Of a stretch of 64,000 nt of DNA, positions 20,067-32,818 are shown piece by piece. The translations under genes and the position numbers were made by a program. The notes beneath the pieces were generated by a model. It worked only from the letters and a program-made list of their open reading frames with translations. It made no database searches and was not told where the DNA came from. Location: assembly GCA_964533825.1 (NCBI GenBank), contig CAZHMU010000005.1:31599-95598 (forward strand). Direction: 5' to 3'. The stretch is from an uncultured Oscillospiraceae bacterium. Lineage in GTDB: Bacteria > Bacillota > Clostridia > Christensenellales > CAG-314. Numbering within the stretch: position 1 is the first letter of the stretch; the number at the start of each line of letters is the position of its first letter.

Positions 20067-22937
20067 CTATTCTCCATCTGCAAATGTGATGGTAATTGTC
20101 AAGCTATCCGCTGTTACGCTGTCAAAGCTGATGTCAAAGTTGACAAGCTTGCCATCGTTGCGAGTGTAGTTTGGTTGAGCTTGGCTAAACACATCCCCTG
20201 TTTGCCACAGGTCATCAGCAGCCGCACAACTAAAGTAGTCACCATAGATGTCTTGCACTTGGTCGCTTTCAAAGTTGGAGTCGCCGTCCGCTTCTACAAG
20301 CTTCAATAGTGGTGTGGCAGATGTTGAGTTGTTGTTGTCCGTAAAGGAGTAGTACTCGTCCCCGTAAGGGTTGGCAATGGTTGCGTCAACGTGATAGATA
20401 CGTGCGCCAAAGCTTGCGCCATCGTAGAGATAACTGTCATCAAGGCCTGCGTGCAATGCGTTGAGCCCTGTTGCCGAGTACAAATCTATGATTAGATACT
20501 CGCTAAAGTAAGTTCCGTCGTAGTCCAACAAAACAATGACAAACTGTCCACTGCTTTCCAAACTGCTGATGGTTATTGTTTGTGTGCCAGTCACGACAGC
20601 CGTAGGCTTAACCCAGCCAAGCAACAACTTGGAGTAAGCATTGTGGTCACCCACGGTGTAGTCCATCATATCCGCGCCGCCCAAACCTTTGTCACTGCCT
20701 TGGTTTGGATTGTAGTCGTAGTAGTCGTCCAGCCCCAACATATGGCCTGTTTCGTGTATGTATGTTGTCGCGTTGAGTTTCAATCCAGCAATGGGACTAA
20801 ATTCGTTGGGGTCGCTTGTTTCAATGTCCTCGTACATAAAGTCCACGCTTGCAAACAAGTAGGTGTAGGCATCCAAGTCGCCGTAGGACAGGTCGTCAGT
20901 GTATCCAGTAACGTATGCCCAGTAGTAGTCGCCATCGTAGTCGATAGGCGCACTGTAAATGATGTACACGCCATCAATAACGCCGTTTTGGTCAACGTCG
21001 TACTTGGTAAAGTCAAAGCCGCGTGCATACAGTTGGTCAAGTGCCAGCTTCACAATGTCTCCGCCGTAGTCACTTATGCCGTTTTTGTCAGTTTCAAAAC
21101 TGCCGTATGTAGAGCTCAACGTAACCTTGTCTGCAACGTCAAATGTCATGTTGAGTTTGCCGTAGGATGATGTTTGGTAGTAGCTTGCAACACTTTCCCA
21201 ACCGGTGTTTGCCTTGTTGTTGAACACGTTGGCAATGTCGGTAAGTTCTTGCGTGGTAAACTTGTCGTTGGAAAACTCCACAGGTACAACCAAAACGTTG
21301 TAGTTGCCTTGAGATGGCAATCCAGTGGACGCAAGGTATCCTTGTTGAGTGTCGTAGTTAGTGATTGCATCGTACAAGATGTCATCGTAGTCTTGGTGGT
21401 TGGCACTGTCATACGCTTGCTCTGGCATCACTTCTTTGGATGGTGTGGACGAGTCACCTGCACCAGTTGCCGAAATGGTGATGGTCTTGAAGTAGATTGA
21501 ACCAAGACCGGATGCGTTTGTTTTTGCAGGTACAACTTCAATCACAACTTTGCCACTAACGGCAGTGGTGGATGTAAATGTCAAAATATTGTTGTTGATA
21601 TTTTGGAATACAACCTCGCTTTGTCCGTCACAAGTAAATACAGTTGAGCCTACCTTTACAGTAACAGTGATGTCCGTTGTTTTGTTTGCGGAAATATCAA
21701 TAGTGATGGATGAAACATTGTCCACGTTTGTTGTGGATGTCAACGTAATGCCACCCAGTTGCTTTTGGAATTGAACACCGCGGTTGGCATCCCAACCGTC
21801 AACTTTTCTGCTTGCAACAAAGCTAACTTCGCCTGTGCTGTTCAAAGTTGTTGCTCCAGTGGATGTCTCAAATGTTGTTGTCAGTTCTTGGTTATCTCCA
21901 CTTGGTGGTGTAACATCTTCACCAGTGTTGTCGCCACCAGTATTATCATCAGTTGTATCGCCAACAACGTTCAGGTTGCTTACGTCCACTGTAACTGTGT
22001 CGTAGTTGGATAGTTGCACTGTGTAAGTAAACACCGCATCGTAGTAGTCGTCTTGTTGTGTGGCAACAATCTTGGTAACTTTGCCATTTGCGATGTACAA
22101 ATCAACTGCGGTGTAAGTGCAACTTTCGTATTCGCCAAACAAATCATTGCCTGCGTCACTTGGGCTGGTAGCACTGTAGTGGTCGTCACTTTGTACCCAA
22201 TCGTAGTTGCCAAGCAAAGCCAAATCTACCCAATCAAGGTAGCCGTAGTATATTTCGTAAAACTCGTCATAATTGTCGTTGTAGGATAGCTTTGTGTAGG
22301 TGCCGTCCTCGTTGTCGTAGTAGTAGAGTATGTCAGTATCGGTGTACACAACGTAGTCCACAAAGTTATTTTGCTCATCTGTGTAGTAAAAGTTGTAGCC
22401 GTCATACAAGTAGATGAGCGTGTAAGCATATACGTTGGCAATGGATGCTTTGTCTGCGTCAACACTAAACTTGAGTTCAAAGTTCCATTGTTCGTAGTCG
22501 ATGTAGTTGGCAAACACGTCACTCAAATCGGCATGTGTTGTATCTCCACTTGGTGGTGTAACAGTTCCACCTTGGTCATTGTTGTCGCTTCCGCCTTGAT
22601 TTGTATTGTCGTCACCGCCTTGATTGTTGTCCTCCGCTTGAACAATAACGATGATGGACTTACTTGCTCCTTCGTAACTGCAAGTAACAATAAACGCACC
22701 CGCCTTTGTAAAATCGGCATTGGGAGCATCAATCATCTCGTCAGTGACAAGCACACCTTCACCTTTATCATTGGTAATGGTAAAGTAATCTTTCAGGTCC
22801 ACAACTTGGCCAACAGTAACGGTGTAACTGTTTTCTTCACTGGATACAGTGTATGTTGATGGAGTAATGATGTCGCACGCACAAAAAACACAACTTAGGC
22901 ACACAATCATCAACAAAACTATGGCTAATTTCCTCAT
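20067..22937 (-). CDS. large secreted lipoprotein with C-terminal HExxH zinc metallopeptidase domain (M6/InhA-like motif context)
   Basis: The true start is Met36 of the track ORF (AAAGGAGAAG RBS). Signal/lipobox MRKLAIVLLMIVCLSCVFCAC. An Ig-like N-domain is followed by two Asn/Gly/Asp linkers each ending VTPPSGD, then HETGHMLGLDDYYDY. Confidence 0.8.
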   Translation of the reverse strand: MRKLAIVLLMIVCLSCVFCACDIITPSTYTVSSEENSYTVTVGQVVDLKDYFTITNDKGEGVLVTDEMIDAPNADFTKAGAFIVTCSYEGASKSIIVIVQAEDNNQGGDDNTNQGGSDNNDQGGTVTPPSGDTTHADLSDVFANYIDYEQWNFELKFSVDADKASIANVYAYTLIYLYDGYNFYYTDEQNNFVDYVVYTDTDILYYYDNEDGTYTKLSYNDNYDEFYEIYYGYLDWVDLALLGNYDWVQSDDHYSATSPSDAGNDLFGEYESCTYTAVDLYIANGKVTKIVATQQDDYYDAVFTYTVQLSNYDTVTVDVSNLNVVGDTTDDNTGGDNTGEDVTPPSGDNQELTTTFETSTGATTLNSTGEVSFVASRKVDGWDANRGVQFQKQLGGITLTSTTNVDNVSSITIDISANKTTDITVTVKVGSTVFTCDGQSEVVFQNINNNILTFTSTTAVSGKVVIEVVPAKTNASGLGSIYFKTITISATGAGDSSTPSKEVMPEQAYDSANHQDYDDILYDAITNYDTQQGYLASTGLPSQGNYNVLVVPVEFSNDKFTTQELTDIANVFNNKANTGWESVASYYQTSSYGKLNMTFDVADKVTLSSTYGSFETDKNGISDYGGDIVKLALDQLYARGFDFTKYDVDQNGVIDGVYIIYSAPIDYDGDYYWAYVTGYTDDLSYGDLDAYTYLFASVDFMYEDIETSDPNEFSPIAGLKLNATTYIHETGHMLGLDDYYDYNPNQGSDKGLGGADMMDYTVGDHNAYSKLLLGWVKPTAVVTGTQTITISSLESSGQFVIVLLDYDGTYFSEYLIIDLYSATGLNALHAGLDDSYLYDGASFGARIYHVDATIANPYGDEYYSFTDNNNSTSATPLLKLVEADGDSNFESDQVQDIYGDYFSCAAADDLWQTGDVFSQAQPNYTRNDGKLVNFDISFDSVTADSLTITITFADGE

Positions 22938-22971
22938 AAGTAACTTCTCCTTTTGAGATTTTTCTGTGTAA

Positions 22972-23256
22972 GGCTCTATCACAAACTCTGGTTGCCCTTT
23001 GACGGCAAAACGACTGTGCAATCTCCCACATTGCTCGGTCACAGACTTTGCAAGTATGCTCCGCGTCGCAACTAACGCTACATTGTTCGCAATGATGCAA
23101 AAAAAGCATCATTGCTCACTTTTAGCGTTGTTGCTCCTTTCCCCACAAACCAAGATTTGATTTTGTGGGGACCCCATTAGTTGCAATGTAGTTCTTGCTT
23201 GCGATTTATCCACCAAACCGCCTAACGGCCAATCAACCATTTTCTGCGACATATCC
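22972..23256 (+). mobile_element. ISL3-like MITE, long form (L1)
   Basis: The 5' end GGCTCTATCACAAACTCTGGTTGC and the 3' end ...CAATCAACCATTTTCTGCGACATATCC form imperfect terminal inverted repeats. It aligns end to end with the copy at 59293. Internal hairpins include GCAATGATGC/GCATCATTGC and CCCCACAAA/TTTGTGGGG. Confidence 0.75.
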
Positions 23257-23574: not shown

Positions 23575-23591
23575 ACTTTCACAACACAATA

Positions 23592-23780
23592 GTTTGCAGG
23601 TTGCGTGAAACAATCGCATTTGTGGGGGAACAATGTGCAAATCATTGACAGTCCCGCTACGGTAAGGCCTTGCCAAGTCCGAATGCCCAACTGCAACAAT
23701 TTTTAAGGATGGTCTTCGATGCAAAGATACAACTCACTTTTGCCACGCAAAAATGGTTGTATTTGCGGTGGCATTTTTTC
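23592..23780 (+). promoter_or_regulatory. cobalamin (B12) riboswitch with terminator expression platform
   Basis: The core GGGGAAcaaTGTGcAAATCattgACAGTCCCGCTACGGTAAgg matches the conserved GGGAA..GGTG.AAATCC...CAG.CCCGC.AC.GTAA segment. A B12-box-like AGTCCGAATGCCC and a closing GTTGC/GCAAC helix follow, then the terminator GCCACGCAAA/TTTGCGGTGGC plus T6. Confidence 0.65.
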
Positions 23781-24020: not shown

Positions 24021-24069
24021 TGCCACCATTGTTGTTGTAAAAAATACATCACGAAAAGGAGAAAAAACA

Positions 24070-24573
24070 ATGAAACACACAAAAAGATTGCTAACGTGGA
24101 TTTTGGCAGTAGTGCTTGTTGTTGGCGCATTGTGTTTGGTTGCTTGTGTGGAAAAACCCACACCACAGCAACTCACGGAACTAACTGTGCCCAATCTCAA
24201 GGATGGTCAAGTGGCTGTCATCATCAAAAATGGCGACAAAGACTTTACCAGCTACGTCGTATCACTCACTGACGAAATGACAAAGGTTGCAGACGTACTG
24301 CAATATCTCAAGGATAACGGTATGTCCCTCGACTGGACAGACTCCGACTACGGCAAAATGATCAACGCCATTGGTCAAATCACTCCAGACCCATCCAAAA
24401 ACGAGTTTGTAGCATTTTTCACAAGCGTACAAGCAGACAAAGGCAACTGGGCTGGCGTGCCTACCTACACACTAGGGGACACAGAACTGCAAATTGTATC
24501 CGCACAAGTGGGTGTAAGTGATGCCACAGTGGAAAGCGGTGCAGTTTTCTACTTTGAAATTTCCACCTATTAA
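24070..24573 (+). CDS. DUF4430 (transcobalamin-like fold) lipoprotein
   Basis: The true start is Met42 of the track ORF (GGAGAAAAAACA ATG). Lipobox LCLVAC. The DUF4430-like body reads ...SDYGKMINAIGQI...W.....G.....GVSDATVESGAVFYFE. It lies downstream of the B12 riboswitch. Confidence 0.7.
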   Translation: MKHTKRLLTWILAVVLVVGALCLVACVEKPTPQQLTELTVPNLKDGQVAVIIKNGDKDFTSYVVSLTDEMTKVADVLQYLKDNGMSLDWTDSDYGKMINAIGQITPDPSKNEFVAFFTSVQADKGNWAGVPTYTLGDTELQIVSAQVGVSDATVESGAVFYFEISTY

Positions 24574-24945: not shown

Positions 24946-25512
24946 ATGCATCGCAGGAATCACGCACTTTACCTTGCCATCACTGCAATGTTTGCAGCAT
25001 TGCTCTTTGGCGGTAAACAGGCATTGGCAGTATTGCCCAATATCGAAATAGTCACTATTGTCACAGCCCTTTGCGCTTATGTTTGGGGGCTGGGTGTTTG
25101 TCTGCCGGCAGTTTTGGTGTTTGTGATGTGTCAAGTGGCTTACTACGGCATCAACACTTGGGTCATATCCTATCTTGTGTATTGGAGCTTGGTTGCCGTA
25201 GCATTTTGGTCGCTTGGAAAACTCAAACTCAACAAAGTTCTAACAGTTGTGGTCGCAACGGCTATGGCAGTTGTATTCACTGCATTTTTTGGCATGCTTA
25301 CAAGCGCAGTGGACACTTGCATCGGCTACATCCAAGGTCAAGGTTTCTACTTTGATTTTGACAATTTTGTACAGCGCTTTGTAGCAATGTACCTTGCAGG
25401 TGTATCCTTCTACGTCACACACATCTTGTGCAACCTTGCGCTGTTTGCCACCGCATTTTTGCCCCTTGTCAAACTCAACCAAAAGGCAAAACTTCGATTG
25501 TTTGGCGAGTAG
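24946..25512 (+). CDS. small 6-TM membrane protein, probable ECF-type S component (CbrT-like cobalamin candidate)
   Basis: 188 aa, all hydrophobic helices. It is the second gene behind the B12 riboswitch and the DUF4430 gene. No convincing RBS precedes ATG 24946, so the start is uncertain. Confidence 0.5.
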   Translation: MHRRNHALYLAITAMFAALLFGGKQALAVLPNIEIVTIVTALCAYVWGLGVCLPAVLVFVMCQVAYYGINTWVISYLVYWSLVAVAFWSLGKLKLNKVLTVVVATAMAVVFTAFFGMLTSAVDTCIGYIQGQGFYFDFDNFVQRFVAMYLAGVSFYVTHILCNLALFATAFLPLVKLNQKAKLRLFGE

Positions 25513-25660: not shown

Positions 25661-25689
25661 TTGACCGATAATCAATTTGGCTGTATAAT
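25661..25689 (+). promoter_or_regulatory. promoter of FMN_bind gene 1
   Basis: TTGACC, 17 nt, TATAAT. Confidence 0.6.
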
Positions 25690-25755: not shown

Positions 25756-26220
25756 ATGAAAAAAGTTCTTGTACTTGCACTCGTAGCTGTTATGGTATTT
25801 GCAGTATGCTCTTTGACAGCTTGCGGTGTAAACACTTACACAGGCGAATGCTCTTACGAATCTTGGGGCACAACATATGGTTGCAAAGTTGACGTTACAG
25901 TTAACGGCAAAGGCGTTATCACATCCGTAAAACTTTGGTCTGACGAAGATACTGGTTGGGTTAGAACAACTTCCGCTGACCGTTGGGATGGTACATCTCT
26001 CGGTATCGGTTACGAAGCTGCAGAAGCTGCTTACGCAGATTACCTCAAGCTCTTCAAAGGTAAGACTGTAGAAGAAGTTATGGCTATCGACGTTGAAGTT
26101 AACGCTCTCATCCAAGTGGTTGAAGACGATTGGTCCATTGCTGGTGCAACAGTATCCGCTGCACGTATCGTTGCTGCTGTTCAAGATGCTCTTAGCCAAA
26201 TCCCAGCTGACGCTGAATAA
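25756..26220 (+). CDS. FMN-binding-domain lipoprotein (flavinylation substrate), paralog 1
   Basis: Lipobox SLTAC. The C-terminal IAGATVSAARIVAAV is the S/TGAT flavinylation-site context of FMN_bind domains. Confidence 0.75.
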   Translation: MKKVLVLALVAVMVFAVCSLTACGVNTYTGECSYESWGTTYGCKVDVTVNGKGVITSVKLWSDEDTGWVRTTSADRWDGTSLGIGYEAAEAAYADYLKLFKGKTVEEVMAIDVEVNALIQVVEDDWSIAGATVSAARIVAAVQDALSQIPADAE

Positions 26221-26250
26221 TTGAATTAGCAAAACACAAACAAAAACAAA

Positions 26251-26282
26251 GGCATTTGCACAACGCAAGTGTCTTTTTGTTT
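26251..26282 (+). terminator. terminator after paralog 1
   Basis: GGCATTTGC/GCAAGTGTC stem (with G-U pairs) plus T-run. Confidence 0.5.
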
Positions 26283-26469
26283 GTGGAGCAAATCTCACTT
26301 TTACTCAAACATTTATCAATAAGCAGGGGCTATCAAATCTATGGTGCTGTTTGTCAAGACTAAAAATAGGCTCGCACTAACAATTGCCATAAACAAACCT
26401 GTCGCAATAGCATAGACAAAAATTTATACGCCCCAACAAAAAATCTATGAAAATTATGTTTTCAACCGC

Positions 26470-26498
26470 TTGACCTATGGCAAGAATAAATATACAAT
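26470..26498 (+). promoter_or_regulatory. promoter of FMN_bind gene 2
   Basis: TTGACC, 17 nt, TACAAT. Confidence 0.55.
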
Positions 26499-26551
26499 GC
26501 TAATTGTATGAAAGTCTTTTCATAACAATATTATTCAAGGAGAACACTAAA

Positions 26552-27001
26552 ATGAAAAAGATTCTTGTTATTGCTCTTACAGTAATCATGGTTGTTTCCG
26601 CTTTCGCTCTTACAGCTTGCGCACAACCACAAACAGTTACAGGCGAATGCTCTTACGAATCCTATGGCACAAAATATGGTTGCAAAGTTGACGTTACAGT
26701 TCAAAACGGCATCATCACAGCAGTTAAACTCTACACAGACGAAGAAACTGGTTGGGTTAGAACAACCGCTCCATACGGTAACTGGTCTCAAGAACAATTT
26801 GACGCTGCTGAAGGCGCTTACGCTGAATACCTTGATAAATTTGTTGGTATGACAGTTGAACAAGCAAACGCTATCGTTGCTACAGCTACAGCTGAGGGTC
26901 AATCAGTCGAAACTGAAGGTTGGGCTATTGCTGGCGCAACAGTATCTTCCGCTCGTATCATCGTTGCTATTCAAAACGCTCTTAGCAAACTTGCTGCTTA
27001 A
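26552..27001 (+). CDS. FMN-binding-domain lipoprotein, paralog 2
   Basis: The true start is Met17 of the track ORF (AAGGAG RBS). Lipobox ALTAC. IAGATVSSARIIVAI is present, and there are long nucleotide-identical runs with paralog 1. Confidence 0.75.
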   Translation: MKKILVIALTVIMVVSAFALTACAQPQTVTGECSYESYGTKYGCKVDVTVQNGIITAVKLYTDEETGWVRTTAPYGNWSQEQFDAAEGAYAEYLDKFVGMTVEQANAIVATATAEGQSVETEGWAIAGATVSSARIIVAIQNALSKLAA

Positions 27002-27028
27002 TTAGCAAACAAAACACAAACAAAACAA

Positions 27029-27060
27029 AGGCATTGCACATTGCAGTGCCTTTTTTGTTT
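27029..27060 (+). terminator. terminator after paralog 2
   Basis: AAGGCATTGCA/TGCAGTGCCTT plus T6. Confidence 0.6.
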
Positions 27061-27211
27061 TGCATATTTATTTATGTATTACCATACACAATCATTATTC
27101 TTGTTGCCAAAACACAAGTATTTGTGGTAAAATGCTATTACTGAAATTTTGGCGCTGTCTTGGTGATGTAATCAAATTGACATTGCACTTGACAATGCCC
27201 CAAAGGAAACT

Positions 27212-29224
27212 ATGAAAAAACTCTTTTTGACAATGTTGATACTTTCAATTTTGTTTGTCACGCTTGTGCCCAGTTGCGCAAGCGCACTTTCCGTTACAGA
27301 AAGCGAAAAGAGCTACCAACCCCACGAAAACGACTACACTTTGTACTCCATTGCCGACAAAGATGGCAACCCTGTGGGGGTTAGTTTTTCCAAAAGCTAT
27401 TTTGGTTCAAGCGGAATTTCCCTGTCCATCCAAATGTACTCCGACCCAAACGGCCTTGACTTGAACTTTTGGATTGGTTCACAAACGCTCACATCCACTC
27501 AACTTGCAACCCGCAACCGGGTAGTGGAGTTGTTCGATACCATCGATGCCACAACCAACCTGGTGGACTCCGTTGCCAACACCCAGTACGATGGACAAAA
27601 TGGCAAACCCACGTCCGACGTGTACCGCTACAACCAAGCAAAACAAGGCGACACATTGCAAATTGACTACCACACCTACATGATGCTTTCGCTTGGTCGC
27701 GAGATGTACGATTTGACCAACCACGCCTTCAATCCGGCAATCTACCGACTGGTGGACTTGTGGGGATTTTCCAGCCGAATCTACTCCAACGTCAACTTTG
27801 GTTTGCCTTACGACCGCCAAGTGACCCGTGCCGAGTGGTCAGCCAACGGCTATCCATTGCCTGACCAAAAGTATGTCACAGCATTTAGTAACCCCAACTT
27901 TACCGATTTTTCTCAAAACGCAGTAGTATTGACGGAGCAAAACGGCAACTACTACGTTACAAAAAACGTTGCGCCCGCCGTTGTTGATGGCGTGGAGTAC
28001 GACCAATGGATTGACCTTGGTGGTATTGCCAAAGGGTATGTCGTAGACCTTGTCAAGCAACAGATAACCGCTCTTGGACAAACTCGCTATTTGGTGGATG
28101 CTGGCACAAGTAGTCAAAGCTACGGCTATAACTATGGCGGCAACAATGTGGAAATGCGCATTGTCAACCCATTTGACGAGTACGCAAGCTTTTTCCCAAC
28201 ACCTTTGGTTGGATTTGAGCTTGCCAACAGAGCAATTTCCACAAGCGGTCAGTACGTGCGCAAATACACAACCAATGGTATCGAGTACGCCCACATCATT
28301 GACGGCACAAAGGGAGCGCCAGCACAAACAGGCATCAAGTCCATCACACTGACCATTCCTGATGACGATGGCAGTGGCTACTGGGCTTGCAAAGCTGATT
28401 GTCTCTCCACCGCAATGACAGTTTTGGGTCGTGACGGCATCGTCAACTTCTGCAACAGCGCATTTTTTGCCGAAAACAATGTGGACATTTTGGTTTTGCA
28501 CGAAACAATCGATGGGCGCAAACAAGTGCTGTCCAACATGGACCAAAGCCAGATGACCTACCAAGCGGAAGCTTTGCAAGAGTTTTCGTGGAACTTGAAA
28601 AAGGTAAATGATGTTTGGACGTATGATGGCAACGCCGAGCTAATTGAACTACCCAAAACAGACTACACTTGGCTGCTTGTTGTTTTGGCGGTGGTAGTGG
28701 TGGCATTGTTTGCAGTGGTTGTAGTTGCAAGATACACAGTCCACAAGCAAAAGAGTCAACAAAACATCCACAACGCAAAAAAGGACAAGTTTTTCAAGCC
28801 GGCGGACGTGATGGTGTACCTTGCGGTTGTGTTGGTGATTGTGGTGCTGTTTTCCGTATTTTTTGGCGAAAGTAGCAACGCTTACCAAAACATCCAAACG
28901 GTGTCCGTCGTGGATATGCATACAAACCAAGTGTTGTTTGTGTACGACACACTCCGCAATGAGTACCAAATTGCCGAAAACTCCCCTTGGGCAATCACTG
29001 TGACACCAAAAGCCGATGGCATTGTTGTCCGCCTGGAAGGGGAAATTGACGGCGAACAACACTTCAACGAAGTTACCATCACAGTTGGCTCACAGCCCAC
29101 AGCAAAAATGACAGACTCCATCTGCGGTTTCCACCAAGATTGTGTGCGCAACTTTGGCACAATGACCACCGCAGGACAATCCATCGTGTGCAGTCCAAAC
29201 TACTTAAAGGTGGTTACCGAGTAA
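27212..29224 (+). CDS. apbE: FAD:protein FMN transferase (ApbE) fused through two TM helices to a NusG_II (DUF1312) domain
   Basis: A signal peptide is followed by an ApbE body with DLGGIAKGYVVD. TM helices are LLVVLAVVVVALFAVVVVA and VMVYLAVVLVIVVLFSVFF. The C-terminal NusG_II-like part reads ...CGFHQDCV...GQSIVCSPNYLKVV. Confidence 0.8.
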   Translation: MKKLFLTMLILSILFVTLVPSCASALSVTESEKSYQPHENDYTLYSIADKDGNPVGVSFSKSYFGSSGISLSIQMYSDPNGLDLNFWIGSQTLTSTQLATRNRVVELFDTIDATTNLVDSVANTQYDGQNGKPTSDVYRYNQAKQGDTLQIDYHTYMMLSLGREMYDLTNHAFNPAIYRLVDLWGFSSRIYSNVNFGLPYDRQVTRAEWSANGYPLPDQKYVTAFSNPNFTDFSQNAVVLTEQNGNYYVTKNVAPAVVDGVEYDQWIDLGGIAKGYVVDLVKQQITALGQTRYLVDAGTSSQSYGYNYGGNNVEMRIVNPFDEYASFFPTPLVGFELANRAISTSGQYVRKYTTNGIEYAHIIDGTKGAPAQTGIKSITLTIPDDDGSGYWACKADCLSTAMTVLGRDGIVNFCNSAFFAENNVDILVLHETIDGRKQVLSNMDQSQMTYQAEALQEFSWNLKKVNDVWTYDGNAELIELPKTDYTWLLVVLAVVVVALFAVVVVARYTVHKQKSQQNIHNAKKDKFFKPADVMVYLAVVLVIVVLFSVFFGESSNAYQNIQTVSVVDMHTNQVLFVYDTLRNEYQIAENSPWAITVTPKADGIVVRLEGEIDGEQHFNEVTITVGSQPTAKMTDSICGFHQDCVRNFGTMTTAGQSIVCSPNYLKVVTE

Positions 29225-29240
29225 CGAATATATGCAATTT

Positions 29241-29266
29241 CGTAGGGGAGGGGTTTCCTCTCCTGA
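29241..29266 (+). repeat. H-family hairpin copy
   Basis: cGTAGGGGAGGGGtttCCTCTCCTGA. Confidence 0.65.
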
Positions 29267-29294
29267 TGTAGTCAAATTGTAAATATTGGTTAAT

Positions 29295-29320
29295 TACAGG
29301 GGCGAATTGTGGTCACCCAT
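29295..29320 (+). repeat. H-family hairpin copy (degenerate)
   Basis: TACAGGGGCGAattgtGGTCACCCAT. Confidence 0.5.
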
Positions 29321-29446
29321 ACAATCACCAACTCAACTACATCAAAGTTGTTACTGGCTAATATCTGCCCATTTTAGCATAATATTTTTGTTGGTTACAA
29401 TCCCGTAGGGACCACCTGCATACCTTTGCAATTTGGAGCCAATGAA

Positions 29447-29490
29447 GGCCCCCCGCTGGGGGAGCTCCTGCGTGAGCAGGTGAGAGGGCC
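29447..29490 (+). repeat. S-family nested hairpin copy (variant first arm)
   Basis: GGCCCCCCGCTGGGGGAGCT-[CCTGC gtga GCAGG]-TGAGAGGGCC. Confidence 0.65.
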
Positions 29491-29502
29491 TTTTGAAAAT
29501 TT

Positions 29503-29550
29503 ACCCTCTCCGTCAGTCTAACAACTGCCACCTCTCCCAGAGTGAGAGGC
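29503..29550 (-). repeat. T-variant nested hairpin copy
   Basis: The reverse complement GCCTCTCACTCTGGGAGAGGTGGCAGTTGTTAGACTGACGGAGAGGGT is about 90 percent identical by eye to 59539..59586. Confidence 0.75.
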
Positions 29551-29720
29551 ATAAAGCAAATACGGCCATTTGTTGTAATGCATTATGGTATGTAAAAAAA
29601 ATTGTATGCGACCAACAAATATTGATGGATACAAAATCACAATCCGTTACACGTAACAACAAACTATCACTCACAAAATTCATGCACATCAAACACTCTC
29701 ACTCCAAAGGAACAAATCCT

Positions 29721-30428
29721 ATGCCAACACTCAACACAAAAACTAAATATTTCAATGCCAAACGCATTGCAACGTTGTCGGTGTTGTGCGCAATGGGACT
29801 AATTATGTTCATGGTGGAAAGCCTGTTTCCCCCATTGTTTTTGCCCGGTGCAAAAATGGGTCTTTCCAACATCTTTTCTATGCTGACGCTGTTTTTGCTT
29901 GGCCCAGTGGATGCTCTTGTAGTTGTGGTTGTACGCACAGTGCTTGGTAGTTTGTTTGGTGGTGGCGTTTCCACACTTATGTACAGCTTGACGGCAGGCA
30001 TTGTTTCGGTGGTAGTTTCCGCATTTTTGGTAGAGTTTGTCTATCCAAATGCCAGTATCATTGCCATTTCCATTGTGTCGGCAATTTGCCACAACATCAC
30101 GCAAAACGTGGTATTTTGTTTGGTATCTAACACTCCAGAAATGTTTAGCTATATGCCTTGGCTGGCACTTGTTGGCATCTTGGCAGGACTGATTGTTGGC
30201 TTTGCCGTGAACTTGATTTTGCGCGCGTTGCCAAATGGATTGATGCTTTCCCTCTTGCCACGTATTGAGCAAACAGACCCATCAACAGTGCAAACCGCAT
30301 CAAAAAACAAGCCCAAAGTTGTAGTTATTGTTGCGCAAGACGACCCACAGACAAATGCCTCAATGCAAACCATCGACCAATCACAACCAACGGAACAAGC
30401 GACGACAGTTAACAAAATAGAACAGTAA
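29721..30428 (+). CDS. Gx transporter family membrane protein (Hpre_diP_synt_I domain)
   Basis: The true start is Met77 of the track ORF (AAAGGA RBS); the upstream part is repeat-derived. Conserved FMVESLFPP...PGAKMGLSNIF is present with ~5 TM helices and a hydrophilic C-tail. Confidence 0.7.
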   Translation: MPTLNTKTKYFNAKRIATLSVLCAMGLIMFMVESLFPPLFLPGAKMGLSNIFSMLTLFLLGPVDALVVVVVRTVLGSLFGGGVSTLMYSLTAGIVSVVVSAFLVEFVYPNASIIAISIVSAICHNITQNVVFCLVSNTPEMFSYMPWLALVGILAGLIVGFAVNLILRALPNGLMLSLLPRIEQTDPSTVQTASKNKPKVVVIVAQDDPQTNASMQTIDQSQPTEQATTVNKIEQ

Positions 30429-30604: not shown

Positions 30605-31420
30605 ATGAAAAAAATTCTCACCTTCAACGATATGTCTGCTCTTGGCAACTGCTCTTTGGCAGTCAATTTGCCAATTTTTTCTCACTTGGGACACACCTGT
30701 GTGCCAGTGGTGACGGCTCACTACTCGGCGCAAACCGGCTTTGGCAAGTATCACGTTTTGCCCAACCAAAGTGTGCAAATTTTTGCCGAGGACGTGTTGC
30801 AAAAAATCCAAGCGGATGCAGTGTATGTTGGCTTTTGTCAATGCACCAACACCCTTGCACAAGTCACAACAGTAGTGCGAAACATCCAAAACGCATTTGT
30901 TTTGGTAGACCCAATCATGGGCGACAACGGCAAACTGTACCCAGTTTTTGATGCCGACTATGTCGATGCGATGAAACAACTTGTCAAGTACGCCGATGTC
31001 ATTACTCCCAACCTTACGGAAGCTTGTTTGCTTGCCGACGTGAGCTACGCGGATGTGATTGCCTGCCAAAATGAACCCACATTTTTGGCAATTGTTGGCA
31101 AGGTTTTTACTGACTTCCTTGCAAAAACTGGCGCAAAAAGCGCTGTTATCACAGGAGTGCCTTGCGGAGATTTGATTGGCAACGTTGTACTCACAAAGGA
31201 TGGCGTACGTTTTGTCACAAATGCTCGCACCCACATCAACTACTCCGGCACAGGCGACTTGTTTAGCTCCGTTGTGATGGGCGAAATGCTTTGCTCTTGC
31301 AATTTGTTGCAAGCAACGCAACTTGCCGCCATTTTTGTTGGTAACTGTGCAAGTCAAACACAGCGCACCGATACCAAATTTGGTGTTGACTTTGCTCCCC
31401 TTTTGCCCACGTTGAAGTAA
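30605..31420 (+). CDS. pdxK: pyridoxal/pyridoxamine kinase (ribokinase superfamily)
   Basis: 271 aa. The PdxK-type N-terminus reads ILTFNDMSALGNCSLAVNLPIFSHLGH.CVPVVTA, with the C-terminal GTGDLFSS motif. Confidence 0.75.
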   Translation: MKKILTFNDMSALGNCSLAVNLPIFSHLGHTCVPVVTAHYSAQTGFGKYHVLPNQSVQIFAEDVLQKIQADAVYVGFCQCTNTLAQVTTVVRNIQNAFVLVDPIMGDNGKLYPVFDADYVDAMKQLVKYADVITPNLTEACLLADVSYADVIACQNEPTFLAIVGKVFTDFLAKTGAKSAVITGVPCGDLIGNVVLTKDGVRFVTNARTHINYSGTGDLFSSVVMGEMLCSCNLLQATQLAAIFVGNCASQTQRTDTKFGVDFAPLLPTLK

Positions 31421-31466: not shown

Positions 31467-31515
31467 TATTTCAAATTATTGTCCTTTTTTTATTTCAAAT
31501 TATTGTCAAAAGAGA

Positions 31516-31550
31516 AAAGACTTTGGTTTTTCCCAAAGTCTTTTTGTTTT
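31516..31550. terminator. second hairpin between convergent pdxK and ligase genes
   Basis: AGACTTTGG / CCAAAGTCT plus T-run. Confidence 0.55.
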
Positions 31551-31645: not shown

Positions 31646-32818
31646 TTACATTGCGTAGTTTTTGAAGTAGTTTTGGATGAGTACAATGGGTGTACCTTTG
31701 TCGCCACTGCCACTTGTAAGGTCGGCAAGACTTGCCAACAAGTCGGTGATTCTACGTGGTGTTGTGCCTTGGCTGAGCATATTGCCTACAAGGTTGGATT
31801 GCTTTTCAGCAATCATCTTTTTCAATGCGATTTCCGCCTCTTCTTCGCTCAGTCCCGCAAGTTTGTTGTCAGCAACGTACTTCAACTTAATTTCGTTTGG
31901 TGTGCCAACAAGTCCACTTGTGAATGCTGGCGAGCAAACAGGGTCAGCAAGCTCCCAAATGCCACCAACAGGGTCCTTGAAAGCGCCATCGCCGTATACC
32001 ATACACTCCAACATTTTGCCAGTTTTTTCAAAGATGAGTTTTTGCACGCGCAAAACAAAGCTTTCGCAGTCGCGTGGGAACAGTTTAACACTGTCTTCTG
32101 TTGCAAGGTTGCTACCCAAAATGCCGTAGTCCTTGTTGTAACCAGAGCCGTCAACAGAGTGTGTCATAAACTCGTCCAAAGAGCAAACCTTCTCTGCGCC
32201 TGCCTTCAATAGCAGTGCCTTTGTTTGCTTGCGAGTGTGGATGTCGGCATTGATCACAAACTTTGTGTGTTTCAAAATCTCGCAAGGGTTGTTTGCCAAG
32301 ATAACTTGACAGTTACCAATTTCTTGGTAGTAGTCGATGTAGTCCACTCCTGTAAACACGTGTTTTACGTCACCAAATGTGTTGTGGAACTCTTCGGCAG
32401 TAAACACGTCTGTGTAGGGGTTTACGCCCTTTTCCATCAGTTGCTCGGTGGTAACAAAGCTGTTGCCCACTTCGTCACTTGGGTAGGAAAGTTGTACAAT
32501 CAGTTTTTTTGTGCCCATACTGATAGCCTTCAACAGCATGGAAAATCTGTTGCGCGAAAGAATTGGCAACACAAGACCAACGGTTTCGTCGCCAAACTTT
32601 TCGTGTACGTCCTTGGCAATTTGTTCCAGTGTTGCGTAGTTGCCTTGCGCGCGACCAAGTACCGCTTCGGTAACGGCAACAACGTCTTTGTCGTTCAGTT
32701 CAAATCCGCCATTTACTGATGCGTTCACAATGCAATCAGCAACAATTTGTGCAAGGTCGTCGCCTTTTTTGATGATAGGTGCTCGTATTCCACGAGATAT
32801 TGTACCTTGGTAGTCCAT
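31646..32818 (-). CDS. CofE-like gamma-glutamyl ligase family protein (F420_ligase domain), substrate unknown
   Basis: The N-terminus GIRAPIIKKGDDLAQIV...VVAVTEAVLGRAQGN and the C-terminal GDGAFKDP region are typical of the family. At 390 aa it is longer than archaeal CofE. Confidence 0.65.
   Translation of the reverse strand: MDYQGTISRGIRAPIIKKGDDLAQIVADCIVNASVNGGFELNDKDVVAVTEAVLGRAQGNYATLEQIAKDVHEKFGDETVGLVLPILSRNRFSMLLKAISMGTKKLIVQLSYPSDEVGNSFVTTEQLMEKGVNPYTDVFTAEEFHNTFGDVKHVFTGVDYIDYYQEIGNCQVILANNPCEILKHTKFVINADIHTRKQTKALLLKAGAEKVCSLDEFMTHSVDGSGYNKDYGILGSNLATEDSVKLFPRDCESFVLRVQKLIFEKTGKMLECMVYGDGAFKDPVGGIWELADPVCSPAFTSGLVGTPNEIKLKYVADNKLAGLSEEEAEIALKKMIAEKQSNLVGNMLSQGTTPRRITDLLASLADLTSGSGDKGTPIVLIQNYFKNYAM

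Follow-up and report, generated by a model that had tools for sequence, protein, structure and literature searches.

An ApbE::EetA fusion in a predicted extracytoplasmic flavin-trafficking and flavinylation cluster of uncultured gut Clostridia

The window, i.e., a stretch of 64,000 nucleotides (nt) from an uncultured Oscillospiraceae bacterium (assembly GCA_964533825.1, contig CAZHMU010000005.1, positions 31,599 to 95,598 of the forward strand), was analyzed for a flavinylation gene cluster. In the open reading frame (ORF) list, four genes were found on the + strand at 25756-30428, i.e., two FMN_bind lipoproteins, a fusion of the flavin transferase ApbE with a NusG_II-type domain, and a membrane protein of the PF07456 ('Gx') family. 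The PF07456 protein was assigned to EetB and the NusG_II (PF07009) module to EetA; therefore, the cluster reads as PplA/Tp15-like substrates, FmnB(ApbE)::EetA, and EetB. By sequence, it corresponds to the flavin-export and flavin-attachment half of the Gram-positive flavin-based extracellular electron transfer (FLEET) locus. It is fairly probable that the four genes form a self-contained extracytoplasmic flavin-trafficking and flavinylation module that is encoded together with its substrates. The original prediction, made from the letters of the DNA, had named two FMN_bind lipoproteins, ApbE, a NusG_II-type domain, and a Gx gene, and Pfam scans, profile comparison, and fold comparison found each of them in its place. 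The present analysis itself shows which genes are present, what their domains are, how the proteins are placed in the membrane, and that the arrangement is conserved across the clade. The features are as follows.

25661..25689, + strand: promoter-like site TTGACC-17-TATAAT, 5' of lipoprotein gene 1 (consensus scan, 11/12 matches)
25756..26220, + strand: FMN_bind lipoprotein 1, 154 amino acids (aa); PF04205, lipobox Cys23, candidate acceptor Thr132 (codon 26149-26151)
26248..26276, + strand: terminator-like hairpin 3' of lipoprotein gene 1 (12-pair stem followed by a T run)
26470..26498, + strand: promoter-like site 5' of lipoprotein gene 2 (10/12 matches)
26552..27001, + strand: FMN_bind lipoprotein 2, 149 aa; PF04205, lipobox Cys23, candidate acceptor Thr130 (codon 26939-26941)
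27027..27053, + strand: terminator-like hairpin 3' of lipoprotein gene 2 (12-pair stem followed by a T run)
27104..27133, + strand: promoter-like site with extended -10 TG, 5' of the fusion gene (10/12 matches)
27212..29224, + strand: whole fusion gene, 670 aa (ORF)
27212..28636, + strand: signal peptide (residues 1-27, AxA type) and predicted exported ApbE/FmnB domain (residues ~28-475); PF02424
28661..28864, + strand: predicted membrane hairpin, i.e., transmembrane helix 1 (~484-506), Lys/Arg-rich loop, and transmembrane helix 2 (~531-551), from hydropathy, charge count, and predicted helices
28889..29224, + strand: predicted extracytoplasmic EetA-type NusG_II β domain (~560-670) with invariant Cys638, Cys644, Cys660, and Pro662, from profile and joint alignment
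29225..29720, no strand: unusually long spacer from the fusion gene to eetB, holding a 47-nt repeat (29504-29550); no Rfam match
29721..30428, + strand: EetB homologue (PF07456, 'Gx transporter'; PF07456 119 bits)
30605..31420, + strand: pyridoxamine/pyridoxal-kinase-like gene (Phos_pyr_kin 75.9 bits)
31514-31545: terminator-like hairpin after the kinase-like gene

The promoter-like and terminator-like sites are pattern matches only and say nothing on function.

The ApbE::EetA fusion protein

The ApbE half was recognized by PF02424, which matched residues 125-416 with 134.4 bits (cut-off 25.6) and also matched all 33 homologues. The motifs DLGGIAKGY (268-276), STSGQY (343), and HIIDG (361) were found, and they contain residues without variation in the 33 fusion homologues. 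The protein was aligned with the Thermotoga maritima ApbE TM1553 through DLGGIAKGY, T-S-G-x-Y, and H-x-x-D; the assignment of the catalytic residues is taken from a review. The AlphaFold model, built with the 33 homologues, had a mean predicted local distance difference test score (pLDDT) of 83.9 and was composed of the ApbE domain (~30-475) and an all-β C-terminal domain (563-669), with a pair of long helices (486-518 and 530-551) in between. In the Foldseek search, the ApbE part resembled Ftp_Tp, Escherichia coli ApbE, FmnB, and Vibrio cholerae ApbE with E values of ~1e-17 to 1e-19 and a target-normalised TM-score of ~0.8. The domain is predicted from sequence and model to be a flavin adenine dinucleotide (FAD):protein flavin mononucleotide (FMN) transferase of the ApbE/FmnB family.

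An exported ApbE bearing DLGGIAKGY, joined through two transmembrane helices to a second outward-facing domain, had been proposed, and the topology bears this out. The N-terminus shows a cleavable AxA-type signal peptide, and a conserved lipobox Cys is absent across the homologues. The hydrophobic helices lie at ~484-506 and ~531-551. The loop between them carries seven Lys/Arg residues versus one Asp/Glu, which suggests that it is cytoplasmic; both globular domains, i.e., ApbE and NusG_II, should therefore be extracytoplasmic. As read from the sequence, the ApbE domain is anchored via a membrane hairpin and not via a lipid.

The C-terminal module was below the detection limit of the family model. 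The whole fusion gave no PF07009 match, and the isolated C-terminal 150 residues scored 20.7 bits against a cut-off of 29.6. However, PF07009 was matched at E<=1e-3 by 19 of 33 full-length fusion homologues, and a more distant fusion (P0375) scored 32.9 bits. When residues 520-670 were used as a profile, 374 matches at E<=1e-3 were obtained among 1.84 billion representative proteins. The best 150 of these included 35 full-length fusions (593-699 aa, matched C-terminally) as well as ~100 stand-alone proteins (145-175 aa), in which the match ran from end to end (profile positions ~2-150). Four of the stand-alone proteins were scanned and scored 37.7-56 bits with PF07009. Two other profile matches, P0311 (PKD repeats) and P0350 (ABC permease), were rejected as false positives.

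The C-terminal profile matched PDB 4ESN (E=0.005) across the shared C..C..CxP motif, whereas a direct sequence search of the region against PDB returned nothing meaningful. The top two PDB matches of the predicted C-terminal domain in Foldseek were Aquifex NusG, which has domain II, with low TM-scores. The NusG_II/EetA assignment was kept despite the sub-threshold score because of the PF07009 matches of homologues, the stand-alone profile matches, 4ESN, and Aquifex NusG. The original prediction had staked its claim on a domain search of this region; on a strict reading the window copy falls short there, but the evidence from homologues, profile, and 4ESN rescues it.

In the joint alignment of fused and stand-alone proteins, Cys638, Cys644, Cys660, and Pro662 are invariant, and the loop and second transmembrane helix of the fusion are aligned with the tail and transmembrane helix at the N-terminus of the stand-alone EetA family. 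By sequence, the last 150 residues are a complete but divergent copy of stand-alone EetA, i.e., a Lys-rich tail, a transmembrane helix, and a β domain. In stand-alone EetA, the three Cys are followed by C-x-P-H, and the three Cys and the His on the outer face could form a metal or redox site. In the fusion clade, including the window, C-S-P-N is found instead; some more distant fusions keep the His.

The fusion had been called unusual. It is present as described, but it is not a one-off. In the genome survey that had been suggested, more than 260 full-length homologues (45-100% identity) were found, and the whole fusion was encoded in 46 GTDB species representatives. All 46 are genomes of uncultured Clostridia, assembled from gut samples (goat, sheep, deer, rabbit, chicken, mouse, and human), and are labelled Clostridia, Christensenellaceae, Oscillospiraceae, or Candidatus Fimimonas. 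For a whole clade of uncultured gut Clostridia, ApbE::EetA is the standard form. Directly 3' of the fusion gene, eetB was found in 45 of the 46 species with a median estimated gap of ~1 nt, and an FMN_bind lipoprotein gene was placed 5' of it in 34-37. No mention of an ApbE-EetA (NusG_II) fusion was found in the literature searched, although its listing in the full dataset of PMC9973259 could not be checked.

Lipoproteins and the EetB homologue

The two lipoproteins are 57% identical to each other and were recognized by PF04205 (FMN_bind) with 22.0 bits for lipoprotein 1, which is exactly the Pfam cut-off, and 27.1 bits for lipoprotein 2 (cut-off 22). The ORF of lipoprotein 2 opens at 26504, with the probable start at 26552. 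Both genes have an AAGGAG ribosome-binding site and encode an L-T-A-C lipobox. The extracytoplasmic location of both proteins is supported by the lipoprotein signal peptide with this lipobox, which was read from the sequence and not from a predictor.

The IAGATVS(A/S)ARI string, which had been taken as a flavinylation-site context, is present in both lipoproteins with Thr132 and Thr130 as candidate acceptors. The motif itself is W-S-I-A-G-A-T in lipoprotein 1 and W-A-I-A-G-A-T in lipoprotein 2, i.e., a non-canonical form without the Asp and the Ser/Thr. The Gly, the acceptor Thr, and the S-x-A-R after it do not vary among 26 members of the lipoprotein family; Asp is absent, and A, T, S, V, K, or G occurs at position -3. 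From the sequence, flavinylation of the two lipoproteins is plausible. A total of 164 lipoprotein homologues were found; those listed (120) have a single domain and a length of 141-171 aa. One listed homologue bears the Joint Genome Institute (JGI) name 'major membrane immunogen', which is presumably a Tp15-type name. NCBIfam gave a specific name to neither the lipoproteins nor the EetA module nor EetB. For the free-standing flavoproteins of the original prediction, the experimental precedent among single-domain FMN_bind lipoproteins is TP0171 (PMC4436053).

In some relatives, a third lipoprotein type, or a domain C-terminal to the FMN_bind lipoprotein, of ~230 aa adjoins the ApbE::EetA gene. 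It was located in the following related loci.

L005, 8817-9572: third lipoprotein type / T-G-A-T domain
L006, 8646-9710: the same
L021, 8480-9802: the same
L038, 8527-9801: the same
L032, 7853-8566: the same
L042, 3144-3872: the same
L025, 82-510: the same

Near the C-terminus of this domain, D-x-x-G-V-x-T-G-A-T-W-x-D is invariant in six aligned sequences (L025 was left out). The domain has no Pfam match and is not encoded in the window. It is a candidate for a new ApbE substrate domain, as suggested by its motif.

The fourth gene of the cluster was predicted as an EetB homologue. Its ORF opens at 29493, and the probable start is 29721 with AAAGGAA just 5'; the gene ends at 30428. The protein scored 119.1 bits with PF07456 (Hpre_diP_synt_I; cut-off 30), and PF07456 is the definition of eetB used in PMC9973259. 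The ECF_trnsprt match was weak, i.e., 23.8 bits, under the cut-off of 30.7. In the sequence search against solved structures, the only match was the riboflavin subunit RibU (3P5N; E=7e-4, residues 12-172), and the solved vitamin B6 subunit PdxU2/HmpT was unmatched. The protein is predicted, by sequence and by analogy, to be a substrate subunit of the energy-coupling factor (ECF) type that binds and exports FAD. The original statement that the roles of NusG_II and Gx proteins are not established thus no longer holds for Gx, which is EetB, a FAD exporter (PMC9973259); for NusG_II it holds in part, as this is EetA, the role of which was left open in the same paper.

Transcription units and neighbouring genes

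Promoter-like and terminator-like sites flank each lipoprotein gene separately, and both genes are therefore placed outside the operon of the fusion gene. Past the promoter-like site of the fusion gene, the first terminator-like hairpin is 3' of the kinase-like gene (31514-31545). This gene scored 173 bits with NCBIfam PRK07105, under the cut-off of 231, and a kinase-like gene follows eetB in 36 of the 46 species. In six of them the two genes overlap by 4 nt, which suggests translational coupling. The kinase-like gene and eetB are probably transcribed together, but it is uncertain that the former is part of the flavin system.

The spacer before eetB was searched for RNA elements, and no riboswitch or other RNA was matched in Rfam even at E<=1. 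Its 47-nt segment at 29504-29550 has a second, inverted copy at 59585-59539 with 91% identity, which looks like a small intergenic repeat element.

The upstream genes at 24067-24573 and 24946-25512 were considered as cluster members and rejected. They are a separate unit because they lie 3' of a cobalamin riboswitch and a promoter-like site intervenes between them and the cluster. The riboswitch (23581-23708, + strand, 40.2 bits) precedes the lipoprotein gene at 24067-24573 and the gene at 24946-25512, which encodes six transmembrane helices; neither product had a match in Pfam or NCBIfam. The two genes are probably a B12-regulated uptake pair. Both families recur 5' of the flavin cluster in 21-24 related loci.

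All neighbouring ORFs within ±10 kb in the 46 species were clustered, and no conserved oxidoreductase was detected. The conserved neighbours are housekeeping synteny only, i.e., ProRS, a major facilitator superfamily (MFS) transporter, MurB, WhiA, and DnaE. Between the kinase gene and the MFS gene of the window, a 390-aa protein resembling F420-0:gamma-glutamyl ligase (CofE-like, PF01996, 177 bits) is encoded at 31646-32818 on the - strand. At this position it is present only in the closest relatives (L005-L008), and the host shows no evident F420 context. Another protein, of 991 aa, is encoded at 20067-23042 on the - strand. It is secreted or lipoprotein-like and has a metalloprotease-like motif, H-E-T-G-H-x-x-G-L-D-D-Y-Y-D, and low-complexity linkers of Gly, Asp, Asn, and Thr; it had no Pfam match at E<=1e-4.

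The labels of some related loci are inconsistent. Six of them (L006, L009, L011, L023, L030, and L044) are Candidatus Fimimonas records filed by NCBI under Myxococcaceae, some with the title 'Corallococcus sp.', and sister records that share the fusion locus appear under the labels Clostridia, Christensenellaceae, or Oscillospiraceae. The window holds the Firmicute genes SpoIIE and WhiA, and WhiA recurs in 39 related loci. The placement of the Candidatus Fimimonas loci in Myxococcota looks like a labelling error.

Comparison with known systems and proposed function

The FLEET locus of Listeria monocytogenes (PMC9973259), as reportedly described by Light in 2018, is composed of PplA, FmnB (ApbE), EetA, EetB, FmnA, Ndh2, and DmkA/B. 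PplA has a two-domain architecture. The cluster of the window has the same four families (FMN_bind lipoprotein, ApbE, NusG_II/EetA, and PF07456/EetB) on the outer face of the cell membrane of a Gram-positive and would follow the same logic, i.e., FAD export, then ApbE, then lipoprotein. Unlike the Listeria locus, it has ApbE and EetA as one polypeptide, in which ApbE is anchored by a hairpin and not by a lipid, and two one-domain lipoproteins with a non-canonical motif, while Ndh2, DmkA/B, and the ECF-T protein FmnA are not in the cluster.

The function of EetB was studied in Listeria (PMC9973259). There, as found by genetics and FAD pull-down, EetB is needed for flavinylation of PplA, binds FAD, and resembles RibU as an ECF substrate subunit; together with the ECF-T protein FmnA and EcfA/A', it makes up a FAD exporter that feeds the ApbE enzyme FmnB. 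NusG_II (PF07009) is labelled as EetA in Data Set S1 of that study, and among 4,214 genomes the neighbours of eetB included eetA in 3,328 and apbE in 2,169. In 14 genomes EetA and EetB are fused in a single chain. These fusions also link EetA by gene fusion within the flavin-trafficking trio, but there EetA is joined to the transporter, whereas in the window it is joined to the transferase and eetB is separate but adjacent.

Another counterpart of the lipoproteins is TP0171 (Tp15) of Treponema pallidum, a free-standing FMN_bind lipoprotein in which a Thr is flavinylated by Ftp/ApbE (PMC4436053). It is likewise small (~140 aa); in contrast, it is listed with a recognised flavinylation motif, it is periplasmic in a diderm, and no EetA or EetB was reported alongside. 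The EetA module shares with stand-alone DUF1312/NusG_II proteins (PF07009; 4ESN) the Lys-rich tail, one transmembrane helix, the β domain, three invariant Cys, and C-x-P, but the window copy is sub-threshold (20.7 bits), has C-S-P-N instead of C-x-P-H, and is C-terminal to ApbE. The components and their logic are already known; what is new is the fusion architecture, the hairpin-anchored ApbE, the relaxed motif, and the lack of a linked electron-transfer gene.

Extracytoplasmic flavinylation is found in about half of bacteria, and thousands of these genomes have no recognised electron-transfer system (PMC8238504). By the definition of Meheust 2021, FLEET/extracellular electron transfer (EET) is assigned when a membrane-anchored type II NADH dehydrogenase (K03885) is in the cluster, and this gene was found neither among the window proteins scanned against Pfam nor among the conserved families of the ±10-kb neighbourhoods in the 46 relatives. 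The other nine systems are assigned by a key gene within five genes of the apbE or FMN_bind gene; no key family of RNF, NQR, Nos, Pce, NapH-like, MsrQ-like, PepSY-like, DsbD, or NQR/RNF-like systems was found among the flanking genes. The cluster fits none of the ten named systems and falls in the 'uncharacterised' class, i.e., 6,230 genomes with extracytosolic flavinylation and no recognised system (Meheust 2021).

In the proposed mechanism, FAD export by EetB, FMN transfer by ApbE, and flavinylation of TP0171-type lipoproteins are taken from the literature. FAD would be carried to the outer side of the membrane by EetB, which would be energised by a shared ECF-T/ECF-A module with genes at another site. 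The ApbE domain would be secreted via its cleavable signal peptide, kept at the membrane by the hairpin that links it to the EetA module, and would move FMN from the exported FAD onto Thr132 and Thr130. The flavinylated lipoproteins may then act as surface-tethered, one-domain flavoproteins of the PplA/TP0171 type that relay electrons at the cell surface. Flavinylation of the two lipoproteins, the adaptor role of EetA considered below, and the electron-relay role with its donor are the inferred parts of this scheme.

A more specific role for EetA is suggested by the fusion. The permanent joining of ApbE to EetA, with eetB next in 45 of the 46 species, suggests EetA as an adaptor that keeps ApbE beside EetB. 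The ApbE::EetA fusion and the reported EetA-EetB fusions, taken together, connect EetA physically with ApbE and with EetB. FAD would then pass directly to ApbE without being released, i.e., the targeted delivery that was proposed to explain why eetB-deficient strains showed no detectable difference in extracellular flavin, and for which no candidate coupling factor was offered (PMC9973259). The full reading, i.e., that EetA is a docking adaptor coupling EetB to ApbE so that FAD is channelled, together with a Cys site and a new set of surface flavoproteins, is a tentative one and on the doubtful side. In it, the ApbE::EetA fusion would have made the coupling permanent in this clade and would be the complement of the EetA-EetB fusions known from other genomes; an interaction or ligand site would be formed by the three invariant Cys outside the membrane; and the Tp15-like lipoproteins and the Pfam-less T-G-A-T domain would be new surface flavoproteins with a relaxed recognition motif.

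Several observations weigh against the module with its own substrates or against the adaptor role. Both lipoproteins depart from the canonical motif, D-x-x-[ST]-G-A-[ST], with only G-A-T retained, and their flavinylation is held as no more than plausible because the motif lacks the Asp and the Ser/Thr and the FMN_bind scores are at or barely over the threshold. With C-S-P-N in place of C-x-P-H, the fused module may differ in its working from canonical EetA. A clean eetA deletion in Listeria gave no EET phenotype (PMC9973259); the protein may therefore be dispensable or serve a different function. The spacer from the fusion gene to eetB is 497 nt in the window compared with a median estimated gap of ~1 nt in relatives; this long spacer is restricted to this species and absent from the related loci. 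Among the 39 predicted window proteins scanned against Pfam (most ORFs >150 aa), no Ndh2, quinone synthesis, Rnf/Nqr, cytochrome, ECF-T, or ECF-A protein was found, and within ±10 kb in the 46 related species there was no conserved ECF-T/A, Ndh2, quinone, or Rnf family. The original prediction that no cytochrome, NQR/RNF, or reductase is nearby is upheld by these scans. Nearby ECF-T/ECF-A partners are not required for EetB membership; dedicated ECF-T (FmnA) and ECF-A/A' genes were near eetB in just 291 and 796 of the 4,214 genomes, respectively (PMC9973259).

Other explanations were weighed against the self-contained module. The machinery may mainly serve flavoproteins encoded elsewhere, e.g., RnfG/RnfD, as housekeeping cofactor maturation, with the lipoproteins secondary or mere neighbours. 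This is unlikely but deserves the most weight among the alternatives, as eetB co-localises most often with Rnf (572 Clostridia genomes; PMC9973259), the lipoprotein genes have their own promoter-like and terminator-like sites outside the fusion operon, 9-12 of the 46 related loci have no detectable lipoprotein gene upstream, and the region is embedded in housekeeping synteny (ProRS, MurB, WhiA, and DnaE). However, lipoprotein genes with the invariant acceptor Thr adjoin the fusion gene in most species, and some of the relatives' lipoproteins are joined to a domain with an invariant T-G-A-T, as dedicated substrates would be. Such a service to flavoproteins elsewhere is compatible with the self-contained module and does not exclude it. 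It is also conceivable, though improbable, that the lipoproteins are not covalently flavinylated at all, i.e., that they have a divergent FMN_bind fold with non-covalent flavin binding, such as scavenging, or an unrelated role. The marginal scores, the non-canonical W-x-I-A-G-A-T, and its variable position -3 (A, T, S, V, K, or G) would fit this. Yet the Thr and the preceding Gly are invariant, the lipoprotein genes adjoin ApbE across the clade, and an exchange of Asp to Ala in a tested substrate of the canonical D-x-x-[S/T]-G-A-[S/T] type had only a minor effect on flavinylation (PMC12052999).

The kinase-like gene raises another explanation, in which the PF07456 protein is a vitamin B6 importer, i.e., an ECF substrate subunit paired with this kinase, and its place after the fusion is incidental. 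The kinase-like gene follows eetB in 36 of the 46 species, with 4-nt overlaps in six, and ECF subunits for B6 were first predicted from such contexts (PMC4860826). However, the protein scores 119 bits with PF07456, the characterised member of which exports FAD, and its sole sequence match among solved structures is RibU, with PdxU2/HmpT unmatched. In addition, eetB trails the ApbE::EetA gene more constantly (45/46) and more tightly than the kinase gene trails eetB. A B6 importer for a coupled kinase was therefore rejected as very unlikely.

Should none of this hold, what is left is an ordinary cofactor-maturation module. The relaxed motif of the ApbE-associated lipoproteins has a meaning beyond this locus; such lipoproteins can carry a motif that departs from the canonical one, and this matters for motif-based surveys. 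With the clade-wide ApbE::EetA fusion, EetA becomes a candidate for the coupling factor, and this clue to its role can be tested. It is also indicated that surface flavoproteins may be present in abundant, uncultured gut Clostridia of livestock, rodents, and humans.

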